A stretch of 64,000 nucleotides of DNA from Escherichia coli (GTDB lineage: Bacteria; Pseudomonadota; Gammaproteobacteria; Enterobacterales; Enterobacteriaceae). The DNA is taken from assembly GCA_902500205.1 (NCBI GenBank), contig GCA_902500205.1_4868.1. The stretch is one strand, 5' to 3'. The position numbers and the translations under genes are program-made. The notes beneath the pieces were generated by a model. It was not told where the DNA came from. It searched no databases and saw nothing but the letters and a program-made list of their open reading frames with translations. Within the stretch, counting starts at the first letter, position 1. Each line of letters begins with the position of its first letter. Shown one piece after another: positions 25,624 through 60,901 of this stretch.

Positions 25624-25699
25624 AGGAAAGTGACGCAATTGGTAGCGTACCGGTCTCCAAAACCGGCTGTTTAGAGTTCGAGTCTCTACTTTCCTGCCA
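25624..25699 (+). tRNA. tRNA-Trp (anticodon CCA), 3' CCA encoded
   Basis: Manual cloverleaf: acceptor AGGAAAG/CTTTCCT, D-stem ACGC/GCGT with GG in loop, anticodon stem CCGGT/ACCGG with loop CTCCAAA, T-arm TAGAG-TTCGAGT-CTCTA. Confidence 0.85.
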
Positions 25700-27047: not shown

Positions 27048-27117
27048 GGCTTTGTAGCTCAGGTAGGTAGAGCAGCCTCTTCGAGGAAGGTCGCCGGTTC
27101 GAGACCGGTCAAAGCAA
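27048..27117 (+). pseudogene. tRNA-like element with truncated anticodon arm (degenerate tRNA?)
   Basis: Good acceptor (6 of 7 bp), D-arm GCTC-AGGTAGGTA-GAGC and T-arm GCCGG-TTCGAGA-CCGGT, but the anticodon arm is only CCTC-TTC-GAGG. Confidence 0.3.
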
Positions 27118-41825: not shown

Positions 41826-43777
41826 GTGAGAAAGGTACCAAAATTCTACGGAATATCCGGCCGGTTGGTTAGTCAGGATAACTATTTGTCCGATTTGCAA
41901 ATAGAAGCTGCTGCCAAAGGTATTAAACCACCCACTATTATTAACGATGTCGCCGTTAACGGGGATGCGATCGAGGTTGCTGAACTTATCGATCGCATGG
42001 TACAGAACAGAATCGTTGACGAAGAACTGAACTCTGCACCGATTTGTAGTTTGGATTGTCCGGCACCGATCGCGCATCGTTACAATCTCGGTTGTAAGTG
42101 TCCGACGTGTGGCTATGTTGTAACTGAACATCGAATTGAATCCGATGTCTGGTTACGTGCACCCGATGAAATGGGTAACTTCGTCAACCCACGATTCTGG
42201 GCAATGTTCAATGCTTTCTTTAATAGCAAGTTGAAGAAGTTTGAACGTAACAAGGTCACTATCGAACGCGGTAATGACTTGATGATGTGGATGATTGACC
42301 CGTATTACCGTATAGAAGAACCAGACGGTAAACGCGCACATGCTGTGAAACGTGTATTGGAAGAACATGGTTTCGTTCGTGGCTTGCGCAATCTGGTTGA
42401 TAACCACGTTAGTATCTTTAACATCCTTACCACGCCAGAAGCCTGGAAGGAAATCTTCGCACCTAATCGGCATAACGCCGCTGAAGGTGAACGCTTACGT
42501 TTACAATGGAAGGAGCTATTCGAAACGCAACGCCATGCATTCTTCCCAAGACACTTACCGCTAATCTCCTCTAAGCTTATCGTTACTGAGGAAGGTCGTC
42601 GTGGTGTCATGGTAGACCCAGTGTTCACGGGTGCTATCGATGCGGTGAAAAATATCGCGTTACTTTATACGCGGCGTAAAGCGATCGAACCACGTTTTCT
42701 GATTAGTCGCGCTTTGAAAGCCAACCGTCAGTTAACGTACTTCCACATGGACTTCCGTCGTGAGTCTATGGAAGGTAAACCGGGTGACTATCGTGCGAAA
42801 TTGGGTTCTACCCATATCCCATTCGGTGGTCGTGCAACCATCTCACCTATCTCAGAACCACACGATGCCTGGAAGTTAAAAGCACCATGGCGTTGGATGG
42901 TTGGGTTGATGTCGACCCACATCGAGAACAAACTGCTACGACGGGGTTATTCGTCACGGCAATGTGAACGTATCGTTGCAAAAGCGGCAATGCAGTATGA
43001 CCCGCTTGTAGATGAAATCTTTAAAGAACTGATTCGTGAATCCCCAGGCGGTCTTGGGATCATGGTCATACCGCTACGTAACCCAACGCTGGTACAGTTG
43101 TCTATTCAAACGCTGTACATCGATGAAGTTGTTACCGATGTTAACCAGTGTTCGCTGCGTATCTCTGACCGTGTGATCAAGATGGCTAACGGTTCGAAAA
43201 GAGCCCCATCGGACGGGAAACCTCTGATGCGTATTCTCCTGAAATGCTGGGAAACCCTAAAGCGTATCTACCAGAAATGGGGACGAAAGTCTGAAACAAC
43301 AGATACGATGGCCTACGCTAAACAATACTGCTAACGGTTGTGATAATGGGTAATCAGCAGCGAAGCCTCGTGAGAGGAACGTTCAACGACTATCGCTGAA
43401 ATGCGAGTAGGGGTCCCAGTGGACTTCGAAGTGGGAGAACACCTAAGGCGATAGCTATGGTGAAGATATAGTCTGTGCCTTATCGAGAGATAAGGAGGGT
43501 GTCTTAGCACACCTGCTGTATACGGAAACGGTATACGGTGGACAAACAGGATTTCGATGGCGACCAGTTCCAGGTACGTTTGCCAGTCGATGAAACTGAG
43601 ATGAAGTTGGCGCTCCAATTCCGTCCAGATAACGGCTTTATGTCTTCTACTGATGTGGACCGCGTAGAACACGGCATGGTTTTACATAACGAGCTAATCA
43701 GTATGCAGAACCAGTTCCTTATTGAAGCAGATGAGGATGATGAAGAAGGCATTCCGTTGGAAGCGGTGATGGGCTAA
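41826..43777 (+). CDS. RNA polymerase beta-prime subunit, N-terminal fragment, interrupted by a group I intron (exon 1 from 41826 to about 43166, exon 2 from about 43532 to 43777)
   Basis: Zn-finger-like CSLDC..CKCPTC; NPTLVQLSIQ matches beta-prime APTLHRLGIQ; exon 2 carries DFDGDQFQVRLP (catalytic NADFDGDQ); GTG start with GAGG upstream. Confidence 0.7.
43167..43531 (+). ncRNA. group I self-splicing intron (boundaries approximate)
   Basis: Canonical core elements: Q-like AATCAGCAGC (43351), R GTTCAACGACTA (43381..43392), S AAGATATAGTC (43463..43473, identical to the Tetrahymena S element), P9 hairpin CCTTATC..GATAAGG; 5' exon can end in T and intron in G with frame restored. Confidence 0.7.
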
Positions 43778-53496: not shown

Positions 53497-55734
53497 ATGA
53501 AAACACCAGTCGAACTCATGTCAAGCGTTGCTGACCGTGAGGTGAATATCACTGGCGTATCTGGGGCACGTGCCTCAATGGTGGGTGGACATATGAAGTC
53601 GGCGGTACCACTGGACAATCCAGATCCGACTATCCATTTTACCGGCGCTGATGTGAACTACCACGATTATTGTTTTAACGATATCGTGGAAGATAGTGGT
53701 ACTGTGTGCAGTTACACAACCAAAGAAGGTGTTACTCGTGCAGCTGTTTTTGCACGCTATGGTCGTGAAGGGGATCACGATCCGCTCCAGCATGTTATCT
53801 TCTTCACGCGCGCAGATTTAACCAACCAGCGCAAAGTGATGATTGATGTAATCGATATTAAGTATTACACCAACCACGATAACATTTTCTCGTCTAAGAA
53901 AGAGGCTACTGGGAAACTTCAGGCGTTGCTGCGCGGACAGACGCAGCACCTGGAAAAAGATGAAATGCTTACCGTACTGCCGGCACAGAAAGACGGTGAG
54001 TTTGTCGATGGGGTCAATCTGCACACTGTGACAATGTCGCACCCAGACATTATCGAGGACTCGTACACCATCTCCGAAACTGCAGCGAAGGCGATGCACG
54101 CTTATGGTTTGCGTGCAATCGACTTTACCTTGCGCGACGACGAGTACCTGCTTGATACGTATGGGACAACGGGTATTGATGGCGTTCGTCGGCCACAGTA
54201 CCTGCCCAATAAAGGACAGGCAATTCGCGATGATGGGTTGGTTATAGCCGCGCGTCGTTTCGATAAGCTGTGGGCGGCTATTGACTCGCACGTGGGCGAA
54301 ACACAACATATCTCTCCGCACTTCGACCGTTGTGAGTATGTTGACGCTGACCCTGAGCATTACAAAGCGCGTCAGGCCGGCGACTTTGAAAAGATGGAAC
54401 GTACTGGTTCTCGTGTCGTTGATATTCAGGTATGGCGGGACGAAACCAAATGCGATCGTGGTGTTAACAATATCGCATGTACCGAAGAGAACAAACGCGA
54501 GTTAGATCACTACGCGAACGCTTTGAAACGTTTTTACAATGATATCGTGCGGTTCTATTTTGCGATGTCCAAAGACAAGAACATTGTCTGGTCACCGAAA
54601 GCGTTTGAGATCCTTGACAAGGCGTTCTGTTCTGAGACGTATGAAGTCTATAACGACTTCCGTGAAGAGATTGGTCGTGAATACGATGAAGCCATGCGCA
54701 AAGGCGAGTATAACCGTTCTGCTGATAAGAACGTGTTAAACAAACTGGCGCAGCCGGTTCAGCGTGGTCTCTGGGACCCAATTGGTAGTTACACGATACG
54801 CATCGTGGTACGTTATCCAATCCCAGTTACCGTCTCATCGAAAATCACCGACCGTTCAGGTACAAAAGGTATCGTGGGTGCAGTGCGGCCTGATGAAGAA
54901 ATGCCGATTAACGAGTTCGGAGAACGTGTGCATGTCATTCGTTCCATGAACGCCGTAATTCGTCGTTCGACTTATGCTGCGCTGTTCCACATGTATTGGT
55001 CTGCTGCATCCGAGCAGTTGAAGATGCGGTTGAAACCTTTACTTGCCGCCAACCAGGTTGACGAAGCCTGGGAAATCCTGATGGACTATATCGATCGCTA
55101 TAACCCACGCTGGACATTCTATCTCAATGCCAGTCACCCGGATACTGGGTCACGTCTGGAACTCTTTAAAGAGATTTACGACTTCACGATTCGTATCTGG
55201 CTTCCCCACGAATTGAATGCTACCCAGGTAGAAATCTGCCGTGCTCTAGGCGAGTATGCACCACGCAAGTCTAAGCTACTGATTACTAACTATCAGGGTG
55301 AGAAAGAGTGGACGAAGAACCAGTTCTACGTCGGCATGGTAGAGACTCTGCGCCTGGATAAAACCGGTCGTGAGTTCTCCAGTATCTCGTCGATGTACAC
55401 GAACTATTTGGGTTGTATTGATGCATCCAACCAAGGACGTGGTTCATATCCGATTAACCTGAAAGGGTTGAAGTGGGGTGGTCCTTCCGAGCAGCGTCTT
55501 ACCGACGGCTTTGGTCCGGGCAACTTCCCCGAAACTCATGACCGCGCTAATAACCCTGCGGTACACCGTGCGATCGTAACGGGGCTGTATAACTCGCCAA
55601 CACCAACCAATCCGGGGGTGCTGGTCGATCGTAAGAAACTGCCAATGGGTGATTCGCAGATTGACAGGATGATACGTAACATCCATCGCTGTGAAGGTTT
55701 TGAATTAGTGCGTCCAATTCGGGAGGATAAATAA
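53497..55734 (+). CDS. RNA polymerase beta subunit, C-terminal portion (split-gene form)
   Basis: DRSGTKGIVGAVRPDEEMPINEFGERVHVIRSMN matches bacterial beta GRHGNKGVISKI.PIEDMPYDENG..PSRMN; EDSYTISE and LDKTGREFSSIS match further beta blocks. Confidence 0.75.
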   Translation: MKTPVELMSSVADREVNITGVSGARASMVGGHMKSAVPLDNPDPTIHFTGADVNYHDYCFNDIVEDSGTVCSYTTKEGVTRAAVFARYGREGDHDPLQHVIFFTRADLTNQRKVMIDVIDIKYYTNHDNIFSSKKEATGKLQALLRGQTQHLEKDEMLTVLPAQKDGEFVDGVNLHTVTMSHPDIIEDSYTISETAAKAMHAYGLRAIDFTLRDDEYLLDTYGTTGIDGVRRPQYLPNKGQAIRDDGLVIAARRFDKLWAAIDSHVGETQHISPHFDRCEYVDADPEHYKARQAGDFEKMERTGSRVVDIQVWRDETKCDRGVNNIACTEENKRELDHYANALKRFYNDIVRFYFAMSKDKNIVWSPKAFEILDKAFCSETYEVYNDFREEIGREYDEAMRKGEYNRSADKNVLNKLAQPVQRGLWDPIGSYTIRIVVRYPIPVTVSSKITDRSGTKGIVGAVRPDEEMPINEFGERVHVIRSMNAVIRRSTYAALFHMYWSAASEQLKMRLKPLLAANQVDEAWEILMDYIDRYNPRWTFYLNASHPDTGSRLELFKEIYDFTIRIWLPHELNATQVEICRALGEYAPRKSKLLITNYQGEKEWTKNQFYVGMVETLRLDKTGREFSSISSMYTNYLGCIDASNQGRGSYPINLKGLKWGGPSEQRLTDGFGPGNFPETHDRANNPAVHRAIVTGLYNSPTPTNPGVLVDRKKLPMGDSQIDRMIRNIHRCEGFELVRPIREDK

Positions 55735-57839
55735 TGGCGGGTCGTTCTGTACACGTACGTGATTTGCGTATGCTTAACTCTGATCAGGTGTGGAAACTAC
55801 GCGGGCGTTATTACGTGACGTTTGACGATGGTAAGTCGTTGGAAATGTCTAGTCGCCACATCAAACTCAGCTGGCCGTATTGGGGTGTGTCGCGTCTGTA
55901 TCCGCAGGTGCCCACTCCATCGACCATGGCGTATCGTCCAGGTCAGGTAGCAACAGATGACCTGCATCTGGACTTTATGTCGGAAGCAGCGGTACTGGCC
56001 CGTAAAGCAGGTGTCGACCTTGCTGAAACGCGTTATATCTTGAGTCAACATGTCTACGCCGATGCGTTCAACATGACAGTGAAGAACTTGCTGTCCTATT
56101 GTACGACAATCGACTTTGATACGATGATGGAGATCTACGACCACCCGAACTTCGAACTCATCCGTCAGTGGGAAGTGCAATACCCTACTGGCTACGATGA
56201 AGATGGTCGGGATATGGTTGAAGAAGCGTACAAGCTTATCGAGAAAATCTTCAAAGACCCTGCGCTACGGTATAACCCGGTCGTGATGTCGGTACTGGAC
56301 GGTACTGTGAAGATGAACCAGGTACTGCAAGCCTTCGTGCGTGGTAAAACGTCAGAAATTGACTCACGTGTATACACCAATCAGGTGTGGGAAGGCTTCT
56401 TTACCGGAATGCACTCGGTTATTTCGCGTTTGAAAGAATCCGGTGCAACTTCACGTTCCCACTTGTACAACACTGACAAGATTGCCGAAGCAGAATACGC
56501 CTCACGTAAACTGCAGTTGGCAGCAAACGTACTGATGTATTTCACGTACGACGACTGCGGTACAACTCACGCACACCGCTACACGTTTAAGGATACGCAG
56601 CTGGATGAGCGTGCCTATAAAGCGATGGTGGGGATGCGTTATCGTTTAGAAGGCGATAATGGTCCGTGGTTGAGATTTGAGAAAGGTGGATACGCAGACC
56701 TGGTTGGCAAACCGCTGGTCTTCCGTAGTGCCATGACCTGTAAAGAGATGGCGAATCAGTCCATCTGTGCGACCTGTATGGGGGATTTGATTTATAACCT
56801 CTCTGAAGGTACGTCACCAGGTCACCTGGCGTCCACGTCCATCTCGGAAAAGGGTACACAGGGAATTCTCTCTACCAAGCACCTTGACTTCTTGCGTTAT
56901 CTGCTCAACCTGGTACTCACCCCACGTATGCGTGAGTATATGACCGAATACAAACATAACTCTCTGAAAGGGTTGTGCTTGCTACCAAAACCACAGCGTG
57001 GTAATTGGTCAGAATACGAGTTGGTTGTTACCGACAAAGTTTATTCGGAGCTGAGCCAGATTGCGTACCATGAAGATCTCGATGCAATTGATGAAACGGC
57101 ATTACCAGAAATCACCGACTTAACTTTCCAACGTCGTTTAGAAGATGGGCAGATAATCGCTGCGGATTCTATCGATGTGCGAATGGGTGTTTGTGGGAAC
57201 TTCTCTAAACCGTTCCTGCACTACTTCTTGAAACAACGAGCGAACATTCGTATCGAGAAGAAGACGGTAGAAATCCCCTTAAAAGGATGGAACCCGAAAC
57301 ACCCGGTCCTGGTCTACACCAACCGTTCTGAATCGATGGCAGAATTCGTAGCCGGCTTAGAAACCAAGCTCCGTTCGATTGCAGCTGATAAGAACGAAGA
57401 CATTGTGGAAATCATCAACACAGCCTCGACTGTGAAGCTGAACAAGAAACAAGGTCGTGTGAAACCGGTGACGTTGGTTGAAATGGGTGGTGCTACAGAG
57501 AAACAGTGTACTTATGCGTTGATGGACACGTTTAAGTATATCCAGCGTAAGCTGAGTGGTATACCGATGACGCACATTGCGATTATGTTGGCGATATCTC
57601 GCGTAGAGTCACCAACCAATCCGTTCCCGGCGGTAGGATTTGACAGTGAAGATTCTACTAATGCTACAGGGAAACGGTTTGTCGATCACAACACGCTCAT
57701 TAGTTTGCGCTCGGCAATTCCGATGTTGTTGTTTGAAGGACAGCAGGGGAACATCGATCGCGTTGGTTTTTATACCGAGTACAAAATCCCGGCATCGTTG
57801 TACGATGACCTAGGAGCCGCTGTGGTAATTGAGTTGTAA
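55734..57839 (+). CDS. RNA polymerase beta-prime subunit, C-terminal portion (split-gene form)
   Basis: ICATCMGDLIYNLSEGTSPGHLASTSISEKGTQGILSTKHL matches beta-prime CAHCYGRDL...SIGEPGTQLTMRTFH; ATGG overlap with the beta gene. Confidence 0.7.
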   Translation: MAGRSVHVRDLRMLNSDQVWKLRGRYYVTFDDGKSLEMSSRHIKLSWPYWGVSRLYPQVPTPSTMAYRPGQVATDDLHLDFMSEAAVLARKAGVDLAETRYILSQHVYADAFNMTVKNLLSYCTTIDFDTMMEIYDHPNFELIRQWEVQYPTGYDEDGRDMVEEAYKLIEKIFKDPALRYNPVVMSVLDGTVKMNQVLQAFVRGKTSEIDSRVYTNQVWEGFFTGMHSVISRLKESGATSRSHLYNTDKIAEAEYASRKLQLAANVLMYFTYDDCGTTHAHRYTFKDTQLDERAYKAMVGMRYRLEGDNGPWLRFEKGGYADLVGKPLVFRSAMTCKEMANQSICATCMGDLIYNLSEGTSPGHLASTSISEKGTQGILSTKHLDFLRYLLNLVLTPRMREYMTEYKHNSLKGLCLLPKPQRGNWSEYELVVTDKVYSELSQIAYHEDLDAIDETALPEITDLTFQRRLEDGQIIAADSIDVRMGVCGNFSKPFLHYFLKQRANIRIEKKTVEIPLKGWNPKHPVLVYTNRSESMAEFVAGLETKLRSIAADKNEDIVEIINTASTVKLNKKQGRVKPVTLVEMGGATEKQCTYALMDTFKYIQRKLSGIPMTHIAIMLAISRVESPTNPFPAVGFDSEDSTNATGKRFVDHNTLISLRSAIPMLLFEGQQGNIDRVGFYTEYKIPASLYDDLGAAVVIEL

Positions 57840-57842
57840 ACC

Positions 57843-57869
57843 GAGGGGCCTTGCGCCCCTCTTTTTTTG
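57843..57869 (+). terminator. intrinsic terminator
   Basis: Hairpin GAGGGGC-CTTGC-GCCCCTC plus T-run. Confidence 0.7.
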
Positions 57870-57885
57870 TGCGAAGAGGGGTAGC

Positions 57886-60630
57886 ATGGTAGAAATTCAA
57901 ATGACTTACACGAGTATGGGGGTACGGGTTGAAGTCCCTATCCGCCAGGCTGAAAGGGCCATACTCGCGTGGGCCGAAGAGAATATGCACGCCCCAAAGA
58001 TGGGCAAGCAACATGGACGAATAACTACGGAACGCGGTGACGCGTACTACGCCCACATTCCGTCTTTAAGGACGTTCATTTTCCATAAAGTGTTCGCTGA
58101 GAAGATTAAACATATCCTCCAACGAGCAGCAATTGAATATGCTTTTCAGTACAAGCTGACAGAGCACCATCCTGAGCGAGGAACACCTTACTGCTGTACA
58201 TTTGATAACTACGGCTTCTCGATGGTAGAAAGCGATCCGGAGTCGCGTTTCTACTATCAGAACGAGGTTGTGGATGCAGCGTCCGATCCAAACCGACCAC
58301 AGACAATCTTTGCCATTCAGACAGGAAGAGGAAAATGCTGTGCTCATGGTACACGTGTGCGTGTACCGGGTGGTTGGAAGAACATTGAGGATATACAGCT
58401 AGGTGATTACGTTACGGGGCGTGACGGAAAACCAGCAATGGTCTCTGGAGTGTTCCCACAGGGTGTGGTTGACCTGTATCAGGTGACGTTTTGGGATGGT
58501 AGGAGTGTTGATGTATGCGGTGAGCATTTGTGGCAAAGCTACTACGTTAATACCACCGAGAACCGTCGCTGGGGTGTACGCGATACTCTAGAGATGAAAC
58601 GTTTAATCTCGATGCCTAATCCGCGTGTGTATATTCCGTTGCCTGAACCGGAGGAGACTCCAGAAAAGGATTTCCCGGTTAGTCCATATCTGTTGGGTGT
58701 GTTATTGGGCGACGGTAGTTTAACCGGTGGCTCCGTTGTTTATCACAAACACGATGTGGAAATAATGGAGAAGGTATTATCGGAACTGCCAGAAGGTTAT
58801 ACAATCCACGTTTCCAAGTATCGTGATGGTCTTACAAAGACTATCAATAGCCCAGGTCACGACCATTGTATTCGTGACGGACTGAAAGAACTGGGAATCT
58901 GGGGTTGTGCTGCTTGGGAGAAATATATACCGGCGGAGTATTTTGAAGGGTCTATTGAACAGCGTTGGGAACTCTTACGTGGTTTGATGGATACCGACGG
59001 GACGGTAAATAAGGATGGGGGGCAACCCTCATTCTGTTCTACCAGCAAGGCGCTGGCGTTGGGCGTCCAGGAATTAGTTCGTTCTCTGGGCGGAATAGCC
59101 ACTATCTCCGAGAAAAAGCCGAAGTATACTTATCTCGGTGAAAAGAAAGATGGCCGTTTAGCTTACATTGTATTTATTCGCCACAAAACACCATCGAAAC
59201 TGTTCCATCTTCCAAGGAAGAAAGAACTGTGTCGTGATAACGGTCAATACAACGATATACTGAAACTTCGTGTTAAGTCTATCGAACCTATTGGGCGTGA
59301 CCTTGGCACGTGTATTCGTGTCGAGAACGCCGATGCGTTGTTTGTGGTGGACAAATGGATTGTTACGCACAACACCAAGACTTGCATGAAAACAATGGTG
59401 AAACGTGGTACCAGAACTGCGTTAATCCATAGACCTTCATACGTCCCTAAATGGTTGTTTGATGTGTGCGACGACGAGACCGGTTTACGCATTACGCGTG
59501 ACGACGTCTTAGTCTGTACCGGCGTACAAGCCATCTACGACGCTCTGGAGATGGGTAAGTCGGGAGAGCTGGATAGACGGGGCATTAAGGTAATAATCCT
59601 CCCCACAGTCTCTCTACAGCGTTTCCTGAAGGAATACATTAACACCGCTGCGACTAACCCTGTGGATCTGGATACGTTTTATGATGTTCTGGGCGTGGGT
59701 CTGGTAGCGATGGATGAGGTGCACGAGCATTTTCACCTCGTTTACATGGCAGGTATAATGTTGAACCCGCCAGCATCGATAGAAATGTCTGCAACTCTTA
59801 AACCGGGTAGCAGCAAAGCGTTTATCGCGGAGCGGTATTTAGAACGGTTCCCAATGGAGTACCGAATCAGTATTCCAATCATTCCGGTGGTTGATGTGAA
59901 AGCGTTGTACTATCGACTGGATGATAAGAAGTTTGCGTGGTGGGCATCGAAGATGACGCCGTATAACCACAAACTCTTCGAAGGGAAGCTGATTAAAGAG
60001 AACTTGCATTTAGAATACGCGAACATGATCTGGGATGTGGTTGAGAAATCGTTCCTTAAACGGTATCAACCCGGCCAGAAGTGTTTGCTGCTATTTGCCA
60101 CGGTTGCAATGTGTGAGTTCTTTACCGAGTATGTGAAAGATAAGTTGTCGCGTGACCCTGTATTCCATCCACTCATGGTGGCGAAATATAATGCAGGCGA
60201 TTCGTATGACGACTTTATCCAAGCAGACTTCTCTATCTCCACACCGGGGAAAGCGGGGACTGCGGTCGATAAACCTGGGTTGGTACACATGTACATTTCA
60301 ACCCCGGTAGAAGACCAGCAACTGAACGAACAGATGGCCGGTCGTCCACGTAAGATTCTCCACAACGAATGGGGTGAAATAGACCCAACGGTGTGGTTAT
60401 TCCATGCGTATAACGTACCGAAGCATTGCAATTACCTGAATGCCCGCCAGAAATCACTCAAGGATGTCGTATTGTCGTTCCGTATCGCGACATCCCCCTA
60501 CGTTGTAAGGAAATCACATGCTCACTCCGCCGCGTCCAGCAGAGCCACTGCCACCCTACATCGGAATGACTTTAGCAAGTTTTCTCGAAAACGTTCTAAA
60601 GGCGTATCCCGGCGTAGAAGACGTCGCTAA
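57886..60630 (+). CDS. DExH-box helicase/ATPase precursor containing an intein in the P-loop
   Basis: Extein junction gives Walker A GRGK|T; Walker B/DExH AMDEVHEH downstream; ATG 57886 lies after the terminator (the track's earlier start does not). Confidence 0.65.
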   Translation: MVEIQMTYTSMGVRVEVPIRQAERAILAWAEENMHAPKMGKQHGRITTERGDAYYAHIPSLRTFIFHKVFAEKIKHILQRAAIEYAFQYKLTEHHPERGTPYCCTFDNYGFSMVESDPESRFYYQNEVVDAASDPNRPQTIFAIQTGRGKCCAHGTRVRVPGGWKNIEDIQLGDYVTGRDGKPAMVSGVFPQGVVDLYQVTFWDGRSVDVCGEHLWQSYYVNTTENRRWGVRDTLEMKRLISMPNPRVYIPLPEPEETPEKDFPVSPYLLGVLLGDGSLTGGSVVYHKHDVEIMEKVLSELPEGYTIHVSKYRDGLTKTINSPGHDHCIRDGLKELGIWGCAAWEKYIPAEYFEGSIEQRWELLRGLMDTDGTVNKDGGQPSFCSTSKALALGVQELVRSLGGIATISEKKPKYTYLGEKKDGRLAYIVFIRHKTPSKLFHLPRKKELCRDNGQYNDILKLRVKSIEPIGRDLGTCIRVENADALFVVDKWIVTHNTKTCMKTMVKRGTRTALIHRPSYVPKWLFDVCDDETGLRITRDDVLVCTGVQAIYDALEMGKSGELDRRGIKVIILPTVSLQRFLKEYINTAATNPVDLDTFYDVLGVGLVAMDEVHEHFHLVYMAGIMLNPPASIEMSATLKPGSSKAFIAERYLERFPMEYRISIPIIPVVDVKALYYRLDDKKFAWWASKMTPYNHKLFEGKLIKENLHLEYANMIWDVVEKSFLKRYQPGQKCLLLFATVAMCEFFTEYVKDKLSRDPVFHPLMVAKYNAGDSYDDFIQADFSISTPGKAGTAVDKPGLVHMYISTPVEDQQLNEQMAGRPRKILHNEWGEIDPTVWLFHAYNVPKHCNYLNARQKSLKDVVLSFRIATSPYVVRKSHAHSAASSRATATLHRNDFSKFSRKRSKGVSRRRRRR
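58336..59373 (+). mobile_element. intein (346 aa) with LAGLIDADG homing-endonuclease domain
   Basis: Starts with Cys directly after GRGK, ends VTHN followed by Thr; Hint blocks (GDYV..DG, GEHLW); LAGLIDADG motifs LLGVLLGDGSL and LLRGLMDTDGTV. Confidence 0.75.
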
Positions 60631-60901
60631 GAAACTCTGCACCGACGCCACTATCAACCAGGCGTTTCACTACTACATGGTCACTGAACATTACAGCGGC
60701 CTGTTCCTTAACCAACGCGGGTTGACGTATTACGTCACCCGCACGTCAAGTATCCGTAACACTTCGTCGTACGAGTTATATACGTACGTGTTGTGGAATG
60801 AGAACCCGGCCGGTAGTGTCGATCAGAATCCAAAGATGGCTTATCGTCTTTACTCTGAAAAATGGCACGATTGGGTGACTGTTCCACACGATGCAAGTTA
60901 A
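60518..60901 (+). CDS. hypothetical protein (127 aa); start overlaps the helicase 3' end in another frame
   Basis: AAGGA 6 nt upstream of ATG 60518. Confidence 0.45.
   Translation: MLTPPRPAEPLPPYIGMTLASFLENVLKAYPGVEDVAKKLCTDATINQAFHYYMVTEHYSGLFLNQRGLTYYVTRTSSIRNTSSYELYTYVLWNENPAGSVDQNPKMAYRLYSEKWHDWVTVPHDAS

Follow-up and report, generated by a model that had tools for sequence, protein, structure and literature searches.

The question raised by this locus is how a helicase whose ATP-binding loop is split by a long insertion can be made functional, and whether the inserted segment is a mobile element. The locus is an open reading frame at positions 57886-60630 of the window, as we call the whole 64,000-nucleotide stretch analysed here (Escherichia coli assembly GCA_902500205.1, contig GCA_902500205.1_4868.1). 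The frame lies on the + strand and runs uninterrupted through 914 codons and a stop. A preliminary description made from the sequence had placed a LAGLIDADG-type intein in the Walker A P-loop of a DExH helicase encoded here. We find that the segment is likely a mobile intein of the class 3 (Trp-Cys-Thr, or WCT) lineage, with Cys326 rather than the leading Cys as the probable first nucleophile of the allele in the window.

The insertion, CCAHGTRV…DKWIVTHN, is 346 residues long (58336..59373; 1038 nt) and lies in frame between IQTGRGK and TKTC. It splits the Walker A motif between Lys150 and the following Thr (IQTGRGK/TKT), and its excision restores IQTGRGKTKT, the canonical motif I of superfamily 2 (SF2) helicases. 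A megablast search of the gene against GenBank phages returned 42 related jumbo-phage records of the SPN3US group (genus Seoulvirus and Erwinia relatives). No identical copy of the gene was found among these 42 records, and the window itself had no identical counterpart among GenBank phages, PLSDB plasmids or complete E. coli genomes. The gene spans 2745 nt in five of the 42 records, namely the E. coli phages Lh1B and EC001 and the Salmonella phages SPLA3, SPLA5c and JN03, and 1707 nt in the remainder, SPN3US, SEGD1 and SaP7 among them; the difference is exactly 1038 nt. In both protein and DNA alignments the gap falls precisely between the Lys codon and the Thr or Ser codon (GRGK/TKS in SEGD1 and SaP7, GAGK/SKS in SPN3US), the intein-less junction of SEGD1 reading CAGACAGGTCGTGGGAAG/ACGAAGTCGTGTATGAAG. 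This placement is unambiguous, since a one-residue shift would not give GRGKTK. The insertion is a discrete, optional, in-frame element within an otherwise collinear gene, and the boundaries, the VTHN ending, the restored P-loop and the downstream DEVH box of the preliminary description all proved exact. A start at the second Cys was rejected because it would leave GRGKC-KT, which mismatches the intein-less alleles. Removal at the RNA level by an intron was also rejected, as the reading frame is continuous and the sole Rfam intron match in the window lies elsewhere, at 43174-43495.

Domain searches identified a splicing part and an endonuclease part in the insertion. Pfam LAGLIDADG_3 (E = 1.3e-11, 45 bits against a cut-off of 22.5, intein residues 211-265) and Hom_end (22.9 bits against 21.1, residues 198-283 in profile terms, the endonuclease core) scored above their cut-offs, and Hom_end_hint over residues 1-52 (E = 6.5e-07, 30 bits) fell just below its cut-off of 32.1. 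These intein-domain scores are far above chance. Among PDB sequences, the Hint part matched the phage gp41-1 intein (1e-7) and the DnaB1 inteins of Mycobacterium smegmatis (6bs8; 1e-6) and M. chimaera (6rix; 3.5e-5), and the best match of the endonuclease part was PI-SceI, the yeast VMA1 intein (E = 1e-7). All PHROG and NCBIfam matches of the insertion were to families that themselves contain inteins: the large terminase subunit (TerL), primase, DnaB, RecA and RNA polymerase A''. Blocks A, B, F and G are present, together with His at B:10, the penultimate His, the C-terminal Asn and a Thr at +1 that doubles as the Walker A Thr. The Hint blocks and the two LAGLIDADG motifs proposed beforehand were thereby borne out, and the alternative named alongside them, that homologues would reveal an ordinary domain, was checked against orthologues from which the insertion is precisely absent. 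A bacterial intein-like domain was rejected since the +1 nucleophile and the His-Asn pair are both present.

The residues of the splicing domain point to a particular class of intein. When aligned to 6bs8 and 6rix, GEHLW falls on (Q/A)HQW, GTCIRVEN on (V)RCVEVDN and IVTHN on vpTHN, and the WCT triplet is complete: Trp66 (B:12), Cys326 (F:4) and Thr344 (G:5). This triplet defines class 3 inteins, in which Ser or Thr is typical at +1 (PMC3196547, PMC5222942, PMC5050341, PMC7664689, PMC4031507), and the +1 residue here is Thr. In the M. smegmatis DnaB1 intein the F:4 residue is Cys118, and Cys F:4 has been proven to be the initiating nucleophile (PMC5222942). WCT inteins occur in helicase-type ATPases, mostly in P-loops (PMC2807308). 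A 2009 catalogue of 37 of them contained 34 without an N-terminal nucleophile and three that start with Ser or Cys (PMC2807308), and later wording of the class states merely that an N-terminal nucleophile is 'not required' (PMC5222942).

As the allele in the window begins Cys-Cys, we compared residue 1 with Cys F:4 in two sets of proteins. The first, obtained with the intein as query, comprised about 130 proteins, of which P0001 is a 97%-identical fragment and the rest are 30-43% identical. Their hosts are PhoH, TerL, DnaB, SNF2 and other P-loop proteins, almost all carrying the insertion after the Walker A GK, with Lys at -1 in 70 of 78. Residue 1 is Ala in 60 of 79, Gly in eight, Ser in four and Cys in two. 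At the other splicing positions we counted His B:10 in 97 of 105, Trp B:12 in 96 of 105, Cys F:4 in 93 of 99, T-H-N at G:5-7 in about 95%, and Thr or Ser at +1 in 89 of 90. The second set, obtained with the extein as query, comprised helicase orthologues from SPN3US-like, Erwinia and marine jumbo phages. Among the 120 clusters listed, 29 bear an intein; these alleles are mostly of about 910 residues and all are interrupted at the same GRGK/TK site. His B:10, Trp B:12, Cys F:4, His G:6, Asn G:7 and Thr+1 are invariant in all 29 and Thr G:5 is present in 27, while residue 1 is Ala (9), Cys (7), Val (6), Ser (5), Met (1) or Gly (1). On a neighbour-joining tree of the splicing domain from which residues 1-3 and F:2-4 were left out, residue 1 changes at least 12 times and switches between nucleophilic and non-nucleophilic at least nine times. 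SPLA3, SPLA5c and JN03 have Hint domains more than 95% identical to that of the window allele, yet start Ala-Leu (GCT CTC) instead of Cys-Cys (TGC TGT). Non-nucleophilic residues thus occupy position 1 in cultured, plaque-forming lytic phages, with Ala1 in these three and Val1 in Erwinia phage Kwan.

Since Ala or Val occupies residue 1 in working alleles and the invariant Cys F:4 is eligible, Cys1 would not be an obligatory nucleophile; it is probably not the required one, and splicing is probably started by Cys326. For the orthologous intein family as a whole, the variability of residue 1 set against the invariance of Cys F:4 argues for the class 3 route with high confidence. WCT inteins with Ser1 or Cys1 were tested by Tori and Perler in 2011 and reportedly still needed Cys F:4. 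The preliminary description had implicitly cast the leading Cys as the splicing nucleophile; this part has to be revised, as the comparative data point to class 3, with Cys326 initiating and residue 1 free to vary.

We also observed that residues 1-2 (58336-58341) and F:2-F:4 (59305-59313) contain a co-varying pair. Across P0160-P0239, residue 1 and F:2 occur as Ala/Ala, Cys/Gly, Val/Gly or Ser/Ser, and several sister pairs show the switch from Ala/Ala to Cys/Gly independently. Lh1B, which pairs Cys with Ala, and P0212, which pairs Cys with Ser, depart from this. The pattern suggests packing compensation beside the catalytic Cys F:4. In the class 3 prototype, the DnaB intein of mycobacteriophage Bethlehem (MP-Be), a P1C mutant mostly cleaved instead of splicing (PMC2807308), so that a natural Cys1 probably requires some accommodation.

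Mobility of the element depends on its endonuclease. In the alignment to PI-SceI, both LAGLIDADG motifs of the window allele (LLGDG and MDTDG) retain their Asp, and the block D Lys (EKYIP) is retained too. The Lys of block D aligns with Lys301 of PI-SceI, which we take to be catalytic. Within the orthologous family, 10 of 27 aligned alleles, P0160 (LMGAFLGNG) among them, have Asn in place of the first-motif Asp (equivalent to 58711-58713), and 26 of 29 keep the Asp of the second motif. The Asn-bearing enzymes may be nickases or may be decaying. Selection on the intein is purifying, with a ratio of nonsynonymous to synonymous substitution rates (dN/dS) of at most 0.13 for the Hint parts and, for the endonuclease, a proportion of nonsynonymous differences (pN) of 0.24 against a saturated proportion of synonymous differences (pS) of 0.86. 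From its intact residues and this constraint, the endonuclease of the window allele would seem to be currently active, a view that we hold with some reserve.

The relationship between inteins and exteins was assessed across the family. In P0160 the extein is 97% identical to that of the window and the intein only 59%, representing a second lineage at the same site (Val1, V-x-x-H-D-V…GSCITVD). In P0206, P0182 and P0185, the exteins are 58-63% identical and the inteins 71-83%, P0206 combining a 58% extein with intein values of 81% and 73%. Intein similarity is decoupled from extein similarity. The junctions carry a corresponding mark: all intein-bearing Seoulvirus alleles share the codons GGA/GGG AGA GGA AAA before and ACC AAG AC(T/C) after the intein, whereas the intein-less SEGD1 and SaP7 have GGT CGT GGG AAG and ACG AAG TCG. 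The N-extein of the window is SEGD1-like up to about 10 nt before the junction, and its last 10 nt or so (GGA AGA GGA AAA) are the intein-linked codons. Beyond the junction, the first approximately 300 nt of the intein are nearly identical to those of Lh1B, the endonuclease domain is strongly divergent (37-78% nucleotide identity in 60-nt windows), and the C-terminal Hint part returns to 92-97% identity.

Directly downstream of the intein lies a recoded tract (59374-59540) in which nearly all synonymous sites differ from every other Seoulvirus allele, although the protein is about 94% conserved. By Nei-Gojobori estimates against Lh1B, SPLA3, JN03 and SEGD1, the first 150 nt of the C-extein have a pS of 0.95-1.00, exceeding simple saturation (roughly 0.75), and a pN of 0.06-0.07; in the rest of the C-extein pS is about 0.11-0.15. 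Given a dN/dS of about 0.02 for the gene and synonymous saturation with the protein kept, the recoded tract is probably a co-conversion tract from a donor that had diverged to synonymous saturation. The window allele is a mosaic, as homing plus recombination would give. Recombination break-points inside the intein are also indicated by the assortment of Cys-Cys (CC) and Ala-Leu (AL) N-termini with two very different endonuclease types, three of the four combinations of which are seen in one 90% protein cluster (including P0241-P0254). From the decoupled similarity and the co-conversion-like flanks we infer that the intein has moved by homing.

Together, these data suggest the following course of events. 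The gene would be translated as a 914-residue, 104.4-kDa precursor that, its ATP-binding loop being split, should lack ATPase activity. Once the Hint domain has folded, Cys326, aided by His64 and Trp66, would attack the Lys150-Cys1 bond and take the N-extein onto its thiol as a block-F branched intermediate, from which the N-extein would be transferred to the hydroxyl of Thr+1. Cyclisation of Asn346, aided by His345, would then free the 39.0-kDa intein, and an O-to-N acyl shift would leave a native GRGK-TKT P-loop in a helicase of 568 residues and 65.4 kDa (all masses are computed). The LAGLIDADG enzyme embedded in the intein would cut intein-less alleles of co-infecting relatives, putatively at ...GGTCGTGGGAAG/ACGAAGTCG..., and repair of the cut allele would copy the intein together with flanking donor sequence. 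That the element is splicing-competent seems to us almost certain from its conserved residues, and that the window allele follows the class 3 route with Cys326 as first nucleophile is probable.

An active intein could instead be spliced in the Cys1-Cys2 allele by the class 1 route, through a Cys1 thioester with Cys326 in a supporting role like that of Asp F:4 in ordinary inteins, or by both routes. Several observations weigh against the class 3 assignment and towards this alternative. The original 2010 definition of class 3 excluded Cys, Ser or Thr at residue 1, and with its Cys-Cys start the window allele falls outside it and could, in chemical terms, begin splicing as class 1 inteins do. Its block A (CCAHGT) can be aligned with that of PI-SceI (CFAKGT) from the first residue, and Cys1 or Ser1 occurs in 12 of the 29 orthologous clusters. 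The top-scoring solved Hint domain is that of gp41-1, a class 1 intein, with the solved class 3 DnaB1 inteins slightly lower, and class 1 inteins with Cys F:4 are known (PMC3196547). Transplanting the WCT triplet into a class 1 intein was not enough by itself to confer class 3 splicing (PMC7664689), so the triplet alone is no proof of mechanism. A single-sequence AlphaFold 2 (AF2) model of the intein with 10-residue flanks was poor (mean predicted local distance difference test score, pLDDT, of 36) and unusable for the geometry of Cys326. Likewise, the Gly at F:2 in most Cys1 alleles, as opposed to Ala in Ala1 alleles, could reflect an active site retuned for a working Cys1. These points must be set against the Ala-Leu sisters, which come from viable phages and fall within even the original definition, as do 17 of the 29 orthologous clusters. 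They must also be set against the nine or more flips in the nucleophilic status of residue 1 while W, C, T, H, N and the +1 Thr do not change, as repeated switches of mechanism are hard to credit. Moreover, B:7 is Cys or Gly, without the Thr used by class 1 (PMC2807308), and Thr+1 is typical of class 3. Splicing from Cys1 is therefore unlikely in our estimation, and initiation by Cys326 remains the preferred reading.

A different objection concerns mobility rather than splicing: the intein may splice while its endonuclease is inactive, so that it is inherited vertically or moved by general phage recombination only and the mosaic flanks do not stem from homing. The Asn substitutions in the first motif reveal decay within the family, the independent assortment of N-termini and endonuclease types is what general recombination would give, and the lengths of the 5' and 3' divergent tracts vary greatly between alleles. 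The window allele, however, has kept the catalytic Asp of either motif as well as the Lys of block D, its endonuclease domain is under purifying selection, and general exchange would have to account for inteins that are more alike than their exteins between distant phages (P0206, P0182, P0185) and for junction-near synonymous codons common to all intein-bearing alleles and absent from intein-less ones. We consider an inactive endonuclease possible but the less probable case; it would in any event leave the identity of the element as an intein unchanged. Finally, the insertion might never be removed, being a dead relic or an ordinary domain in a helicase that either works with it or is dispensable; the spliced product is, after all, inferred, and essentiality of the helicase is assumed. 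Yet splitting GK from T should abolish nucleotide binding, and RadA loses its ATPase activity with a P-loop intein (PMC6195587). No splicing residue varies among the 29 diverged alleles, the extein evolves at a dN/dS of about 0.02, and at least five independently isolated lytic phages carry the insertion, which together make permanent retention very improbable. A mobile class 3 intein is the reading that we carry forward.

A more speculative extension, to which we assign little likelihood, is that, in Seoul-like and Erwinia jumbo phages, the P-loop of the helicase hosts an allelic series of one class 3 intein in which residue 1 toggles repeatedly between nucleophilic (Cys, Ser) and non-nucleophilic (Ala, Val, Gly, Met) residues with compensation at F:2, and that the Cys1-Cys2 alleles are functionally distinct. 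Such alleles could start splicing from either Cys1 or Cys326. Alternatively, a disulfide of Cys1, Cys2 or Cys61 with Cys326 could hold the helicase inactive until conditions become reducing, by analogy with the M. smegmatis DnaB1 intein, a class 3 P-loop helicase intein under redox control through Cys F:4 (PMC6195587). If true, redox gating would be post-translational control of a helicase by the phage, and could matter in persistent carrier-state infections of Seoul-like phages.

Table 1. Positions in the window of the precursor gene, its parts and a second self-splicing element.
Feature	Position	Strand	Basis
Precursor gene, intein-containing SF2 (DEVH) helicase	57886..60630	+	Open frame; start and stop as annotated in Lh1B, SPLA3 and JN03
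N-extein, residues 1-150, ending in the first part of Walker A / SF2 motif I, IQTGRGK (58315-58335)	57886..58335	+	DNA and protein alignments; motif location
Intein, 346 residues, 39.0 kDa; Hint splicing domain split by a LAGLIDADG homing endonuclease	58336..59373	+	Pfam, PDB phmmer, PHROG, NCBIfam; exactly 1038 nt missing from 1707-nt alleles
Block A (CCAHGTRVRVPGG); Cys1 and Cys2	58336..58374	+	Aligns from residue 1 to PI-SceI CFAKGTNVLMADG (CCAHGTRV on CFAKGTNV)
Block B (GRSVDVCGEHLWQS); Cys61 (B:7), His64 (B:10), Trp66 (B:12, the class 3 'W')	58498..58539	+	Aligns to HQW of M. smegmatis and M. chimaera DnaB1
First LAGLIDADG motif (block C, PYLLGVLLGDGSL); catalytic Asp kept	58684..58722	+	Aligns to PI-SceI YLLGLWIGDG; under Pfam Hom_end
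Block D region of the endonuclease (WEKYIPAEYF); conserved Lys	58915..58944	+	Aligns to PI-SceI VKNIPSFL, Lys301 position
Second LAGLIDADG motif (block E, WELLRGLMDTDGTV); catalytic Asp kept	58966..59007	+	Aligns to PI-SceI FLAGLIDSDGYV; under Pfam LAGLIDADG_3
Block F (DLGTCIRVENADALFVV); Cys326 at F:4 (59311-59313), proposed initiating nucleophile	59299..59349	+	Aligns to RCVEVDNPEHLYL of M. smegmatis DnaB1
Block G (DKWIVTHN) and Thr+1; Thr344 G:5, His345 G:6, Asn346 G:7, Thr+1 G:8	59350..59376	+	Aligns to vpTHN of DnaB1 class 3 inteins
C-extein, 418 residues; disordered Arg-rich tail	59374..60630	+	Motif location; spliced model
Recoded tract, about 55 codons directly 3' of the intein	59374..59540	+	Nei-Gojobori estimates; codon alignment
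Group I intron	43174-43495	+	Rfam RF00028, 69 bits against a gathering score of 50

The spliced protein was analysed in its own right. SF2 motifs Ia (ILPTVSL, 59590-59616), II (DEVH, 59713-59724, within MDEVHEH, 59710-59730), III (SAT, 59788-59796) and VI (QMAGRPR, 60331-60354) were located in the C-extein, and once the intein is removed, the sequence scores E = 3e-58 against PHROG 16 ('DNA helicase'). No curated Pfam helicase model scored above its cut-off for the extein (ResIII 17.6 bits against 22.5; DEAD 12.8 against 26), and no PDB sequence relative of it was found with the query alone or as a 34-sequence profile. An AF2 model (m3f3364ff4086) of the intein-less orthologue P0121, which is 99% identical, was built with a 34-sequence alignment and reached a mean pLDDT of 85.8, residues 533-568 of the spliced model falling below 50. 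The best Foldseek matches of this model were XPB/Ssl2 of TFIIH and archaeal XPB (E = 2e-12 to 1e-10), followed by HsdR, RecQ/BLM/WRN, Snf2, Chd1 and Rad54; the XPB/Ssl2, HsdR, RecQ and Snf2 matches as a set lie at E = 2e-12 to 1e-9 with a probability of 1.00. The earlier assignment to the DExH helicases is upheld by these results, and they support a very divergent SF2 DExH (DEVH) helicase with a predicted XPB-like fold. The helicase is conserved among jumbo phages of the SPN3US-like and Erwinia groups, with identity falling to about 40%, and its dN/dS indicates very strong purifying selection. That this gene and the intron-bearing gene of the window are 'essential', as the preliminary description put it, is an assumption: for the helicase no test of essentiality was found in the literature, and the SPN3US essential-gene study makes no mention of this helicase.

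Comparison with characterised inteins places the element within a familiar group. The DnaB1 inteins of M. smegmatis and M. chimaera share WCT, His B:10, THN and a hydroxyl residue at +1, and likewise interrupt the Walker A motif of a helicase so that the P-loop Ser/Thr becomes the +1 nucleophile (PMC6195587). They differ in being mini-inteins without an endonuclease, with an Ala start, in the bacterial superfamily 4 helicase DnaB, whereas the intein in the window has a full LAGLIDADG domain, a Cys-Cys start and a phage SF2 host; the similarity is remote (E of about 1e-6 over some 80 residues). By published description, further likenesses are MP-Be, Catera gp206, TerL1, RecB and the Dra Snf2 inteins, which are phage-borne, of about 340 residues, and have LAGLIDADG, WCT and Thr+1, and whose hosts are helicases or other ATPases interrupted mostly at P-loops (PMC2807308, PMC5050341). 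MP-Be begins with Pro1 in place of the natural Cys1 seen here, and the phage class 3 inteins as a group differ in host gene and phage group, ours being an enterobacterial jumbo phage of the Chimalliviridae. Three WCT inteins with Ser1 or Cys1 (PMC2807308) likewise combine the full triplet with a standard N-terminal nucleophile. PI-SceI resembles the endonuclease best among PDB entries, with both LAGLIDADG motifs and block A aligned, but belongs to class 1 (Cys1, Cys+1), has an additional region for DNA recognition and resides in a eukaryotic V-ATPase. At the TerL1-a site of mycobacteriophage terminases, insertion is also between the Walker A Lys and Thr, with the Thr as +1 nucleophile (PMC5050341); there the host protein is a terminase and here a helicase. 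The K/T position has been called a 'classic' P-loop intein site (PMC5050341), in agreement with the preliminary description. Class 3 inteins are described as monophyletic and as housed mainly in helicase genes (PMC3196547, PMC4031507, PMC2807308), and a phage origin followed by spread among helicase genes has been proposed for them (PMC3196547, PMC4031507).

The start of the gene was placed at ATG 57886, although the mechanical list of open reading frames opens the same frame earlier, at TTG 57829. ATG 57886 is the annotated start in every related record, and in front of it are a terminator-like hairpin that carries a run of T (57844-57869) and a ribosome-binding site, AGAGGGG. The helicase gene is directly downstream of two RNA polymerase subunit genes (region 55734-60630), the second of which is separated from it by the hairpin. 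Given these neighbours and the XPB/Ssl2-like best fold matches, a transcription-related role for the helicase is conceivable. At its 3' end, the last 113 nt of the gene (60518-60630) are overlapped in another frame by a conserved 127-residue open reading frame at 60518-60901 (+), which matches PHROG 9835 (E = 6e-67, unknown function). The helicase tail beneath the overlap is predicted to be disordered, ends in SRRRRRR and hardly varies among relatives, as would follow from constraint on both reading frames. Elsewhere in the window, two transfer RNA genes were found by Rfam at 25624-25696 and 27048-27117 (+; 63.6 and 36.4 bits).

This protein bears a variety of names in public records: 'terminase large subunit' in SPLA3 (L003, 3001-5745) and SPLA5c (L004, 1001-3745), 'Recombinase A' (VVZ87795.1), 'LAGLIDADG family homing endonuclease' (WP_210761323.1), 'hypothetical protein' and 'helicase'. 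VVZ87795.1 and WP_210761323.1 are identical to the product of 57886-60627 of the window, and this exact 914-residue protein is recorded at NCBI from a 240,589-nt contig of an assembly labelled Escherichia coli. The families from which the wrong labels derive match the intein part only (TerL PHROGs 19299, 36964 and 15; NCBIfam RecA PRK09519 and DnaB PRK07773), and 'terminase' and 'Recombinase A' are thus explained by profile families that themselves contain inteins. We rejected an identity as TerL on the same ground, the PHROG TerL matches being confined to the intein. Recognising the intein gives the true 568-residue helicase and averts a false terminase call in jumbo-phage genomes.

Among the papers that could be searched, no description of an intein in SPN3US-like phages was found, the literature on inteins together with SPN3US, jumbo phages or helicases offering passing mentions. 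WCT inteins with Ser1 or Cys1, the K/T site and class 3 inteins in P-loop helicases are known already, and are here extended to a new host gene and phage group. What is mildly new is the density of natural alleles at this site, together with the hypervariability of residue 1 and a position that may compensate for it. Current understanding is unchanged and a known pattern extended; a single orthologous site with about 30 diverged natural alleles nonetheless provides a comparative test of the class 3 mechanism and of its tolerance of Cys1.

The preliminary description had also noted a group I intron in the same window, and this was confirmed by Rfam. The intron interrupts an RNA polymerase subunit gene (flanks 41826-43334 and 43538-43777; PHROG 2987, with profile positions 1-417 of 478 upstream of the intron). 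The catalytic DFDGD motif (43550-43564) follows a short way downstream of the intron, the downstream exon frame opening with ...DKQDFDGDQ. PHROG 2987 is labelled 'beta subunit', but DFDGD is the signature of beta-prime. Many near-identical copies of the helicase lie on contigs of about 240 kb from Salmonella assemblies, and the phage and many close relatives turn up as contigs of this size in assemblies of Salmonella and E. coli isolates, which fits the report that virulent Seoul-like jumbo phages persist in bacterial isolates (bioRxiv 10.1101/2024.12.31.630880). Homing elements have been reviewed as mediators of competition between co-infecting jumbo phages (PMC13282480). With an intein in the P-loop of a helicase and a group I intron at the DFDGD motif of an RNA polymerase subunit gene, Seoul-like phages carry homing elements at the catalytic motifs of their nucleic-acid enzymes.

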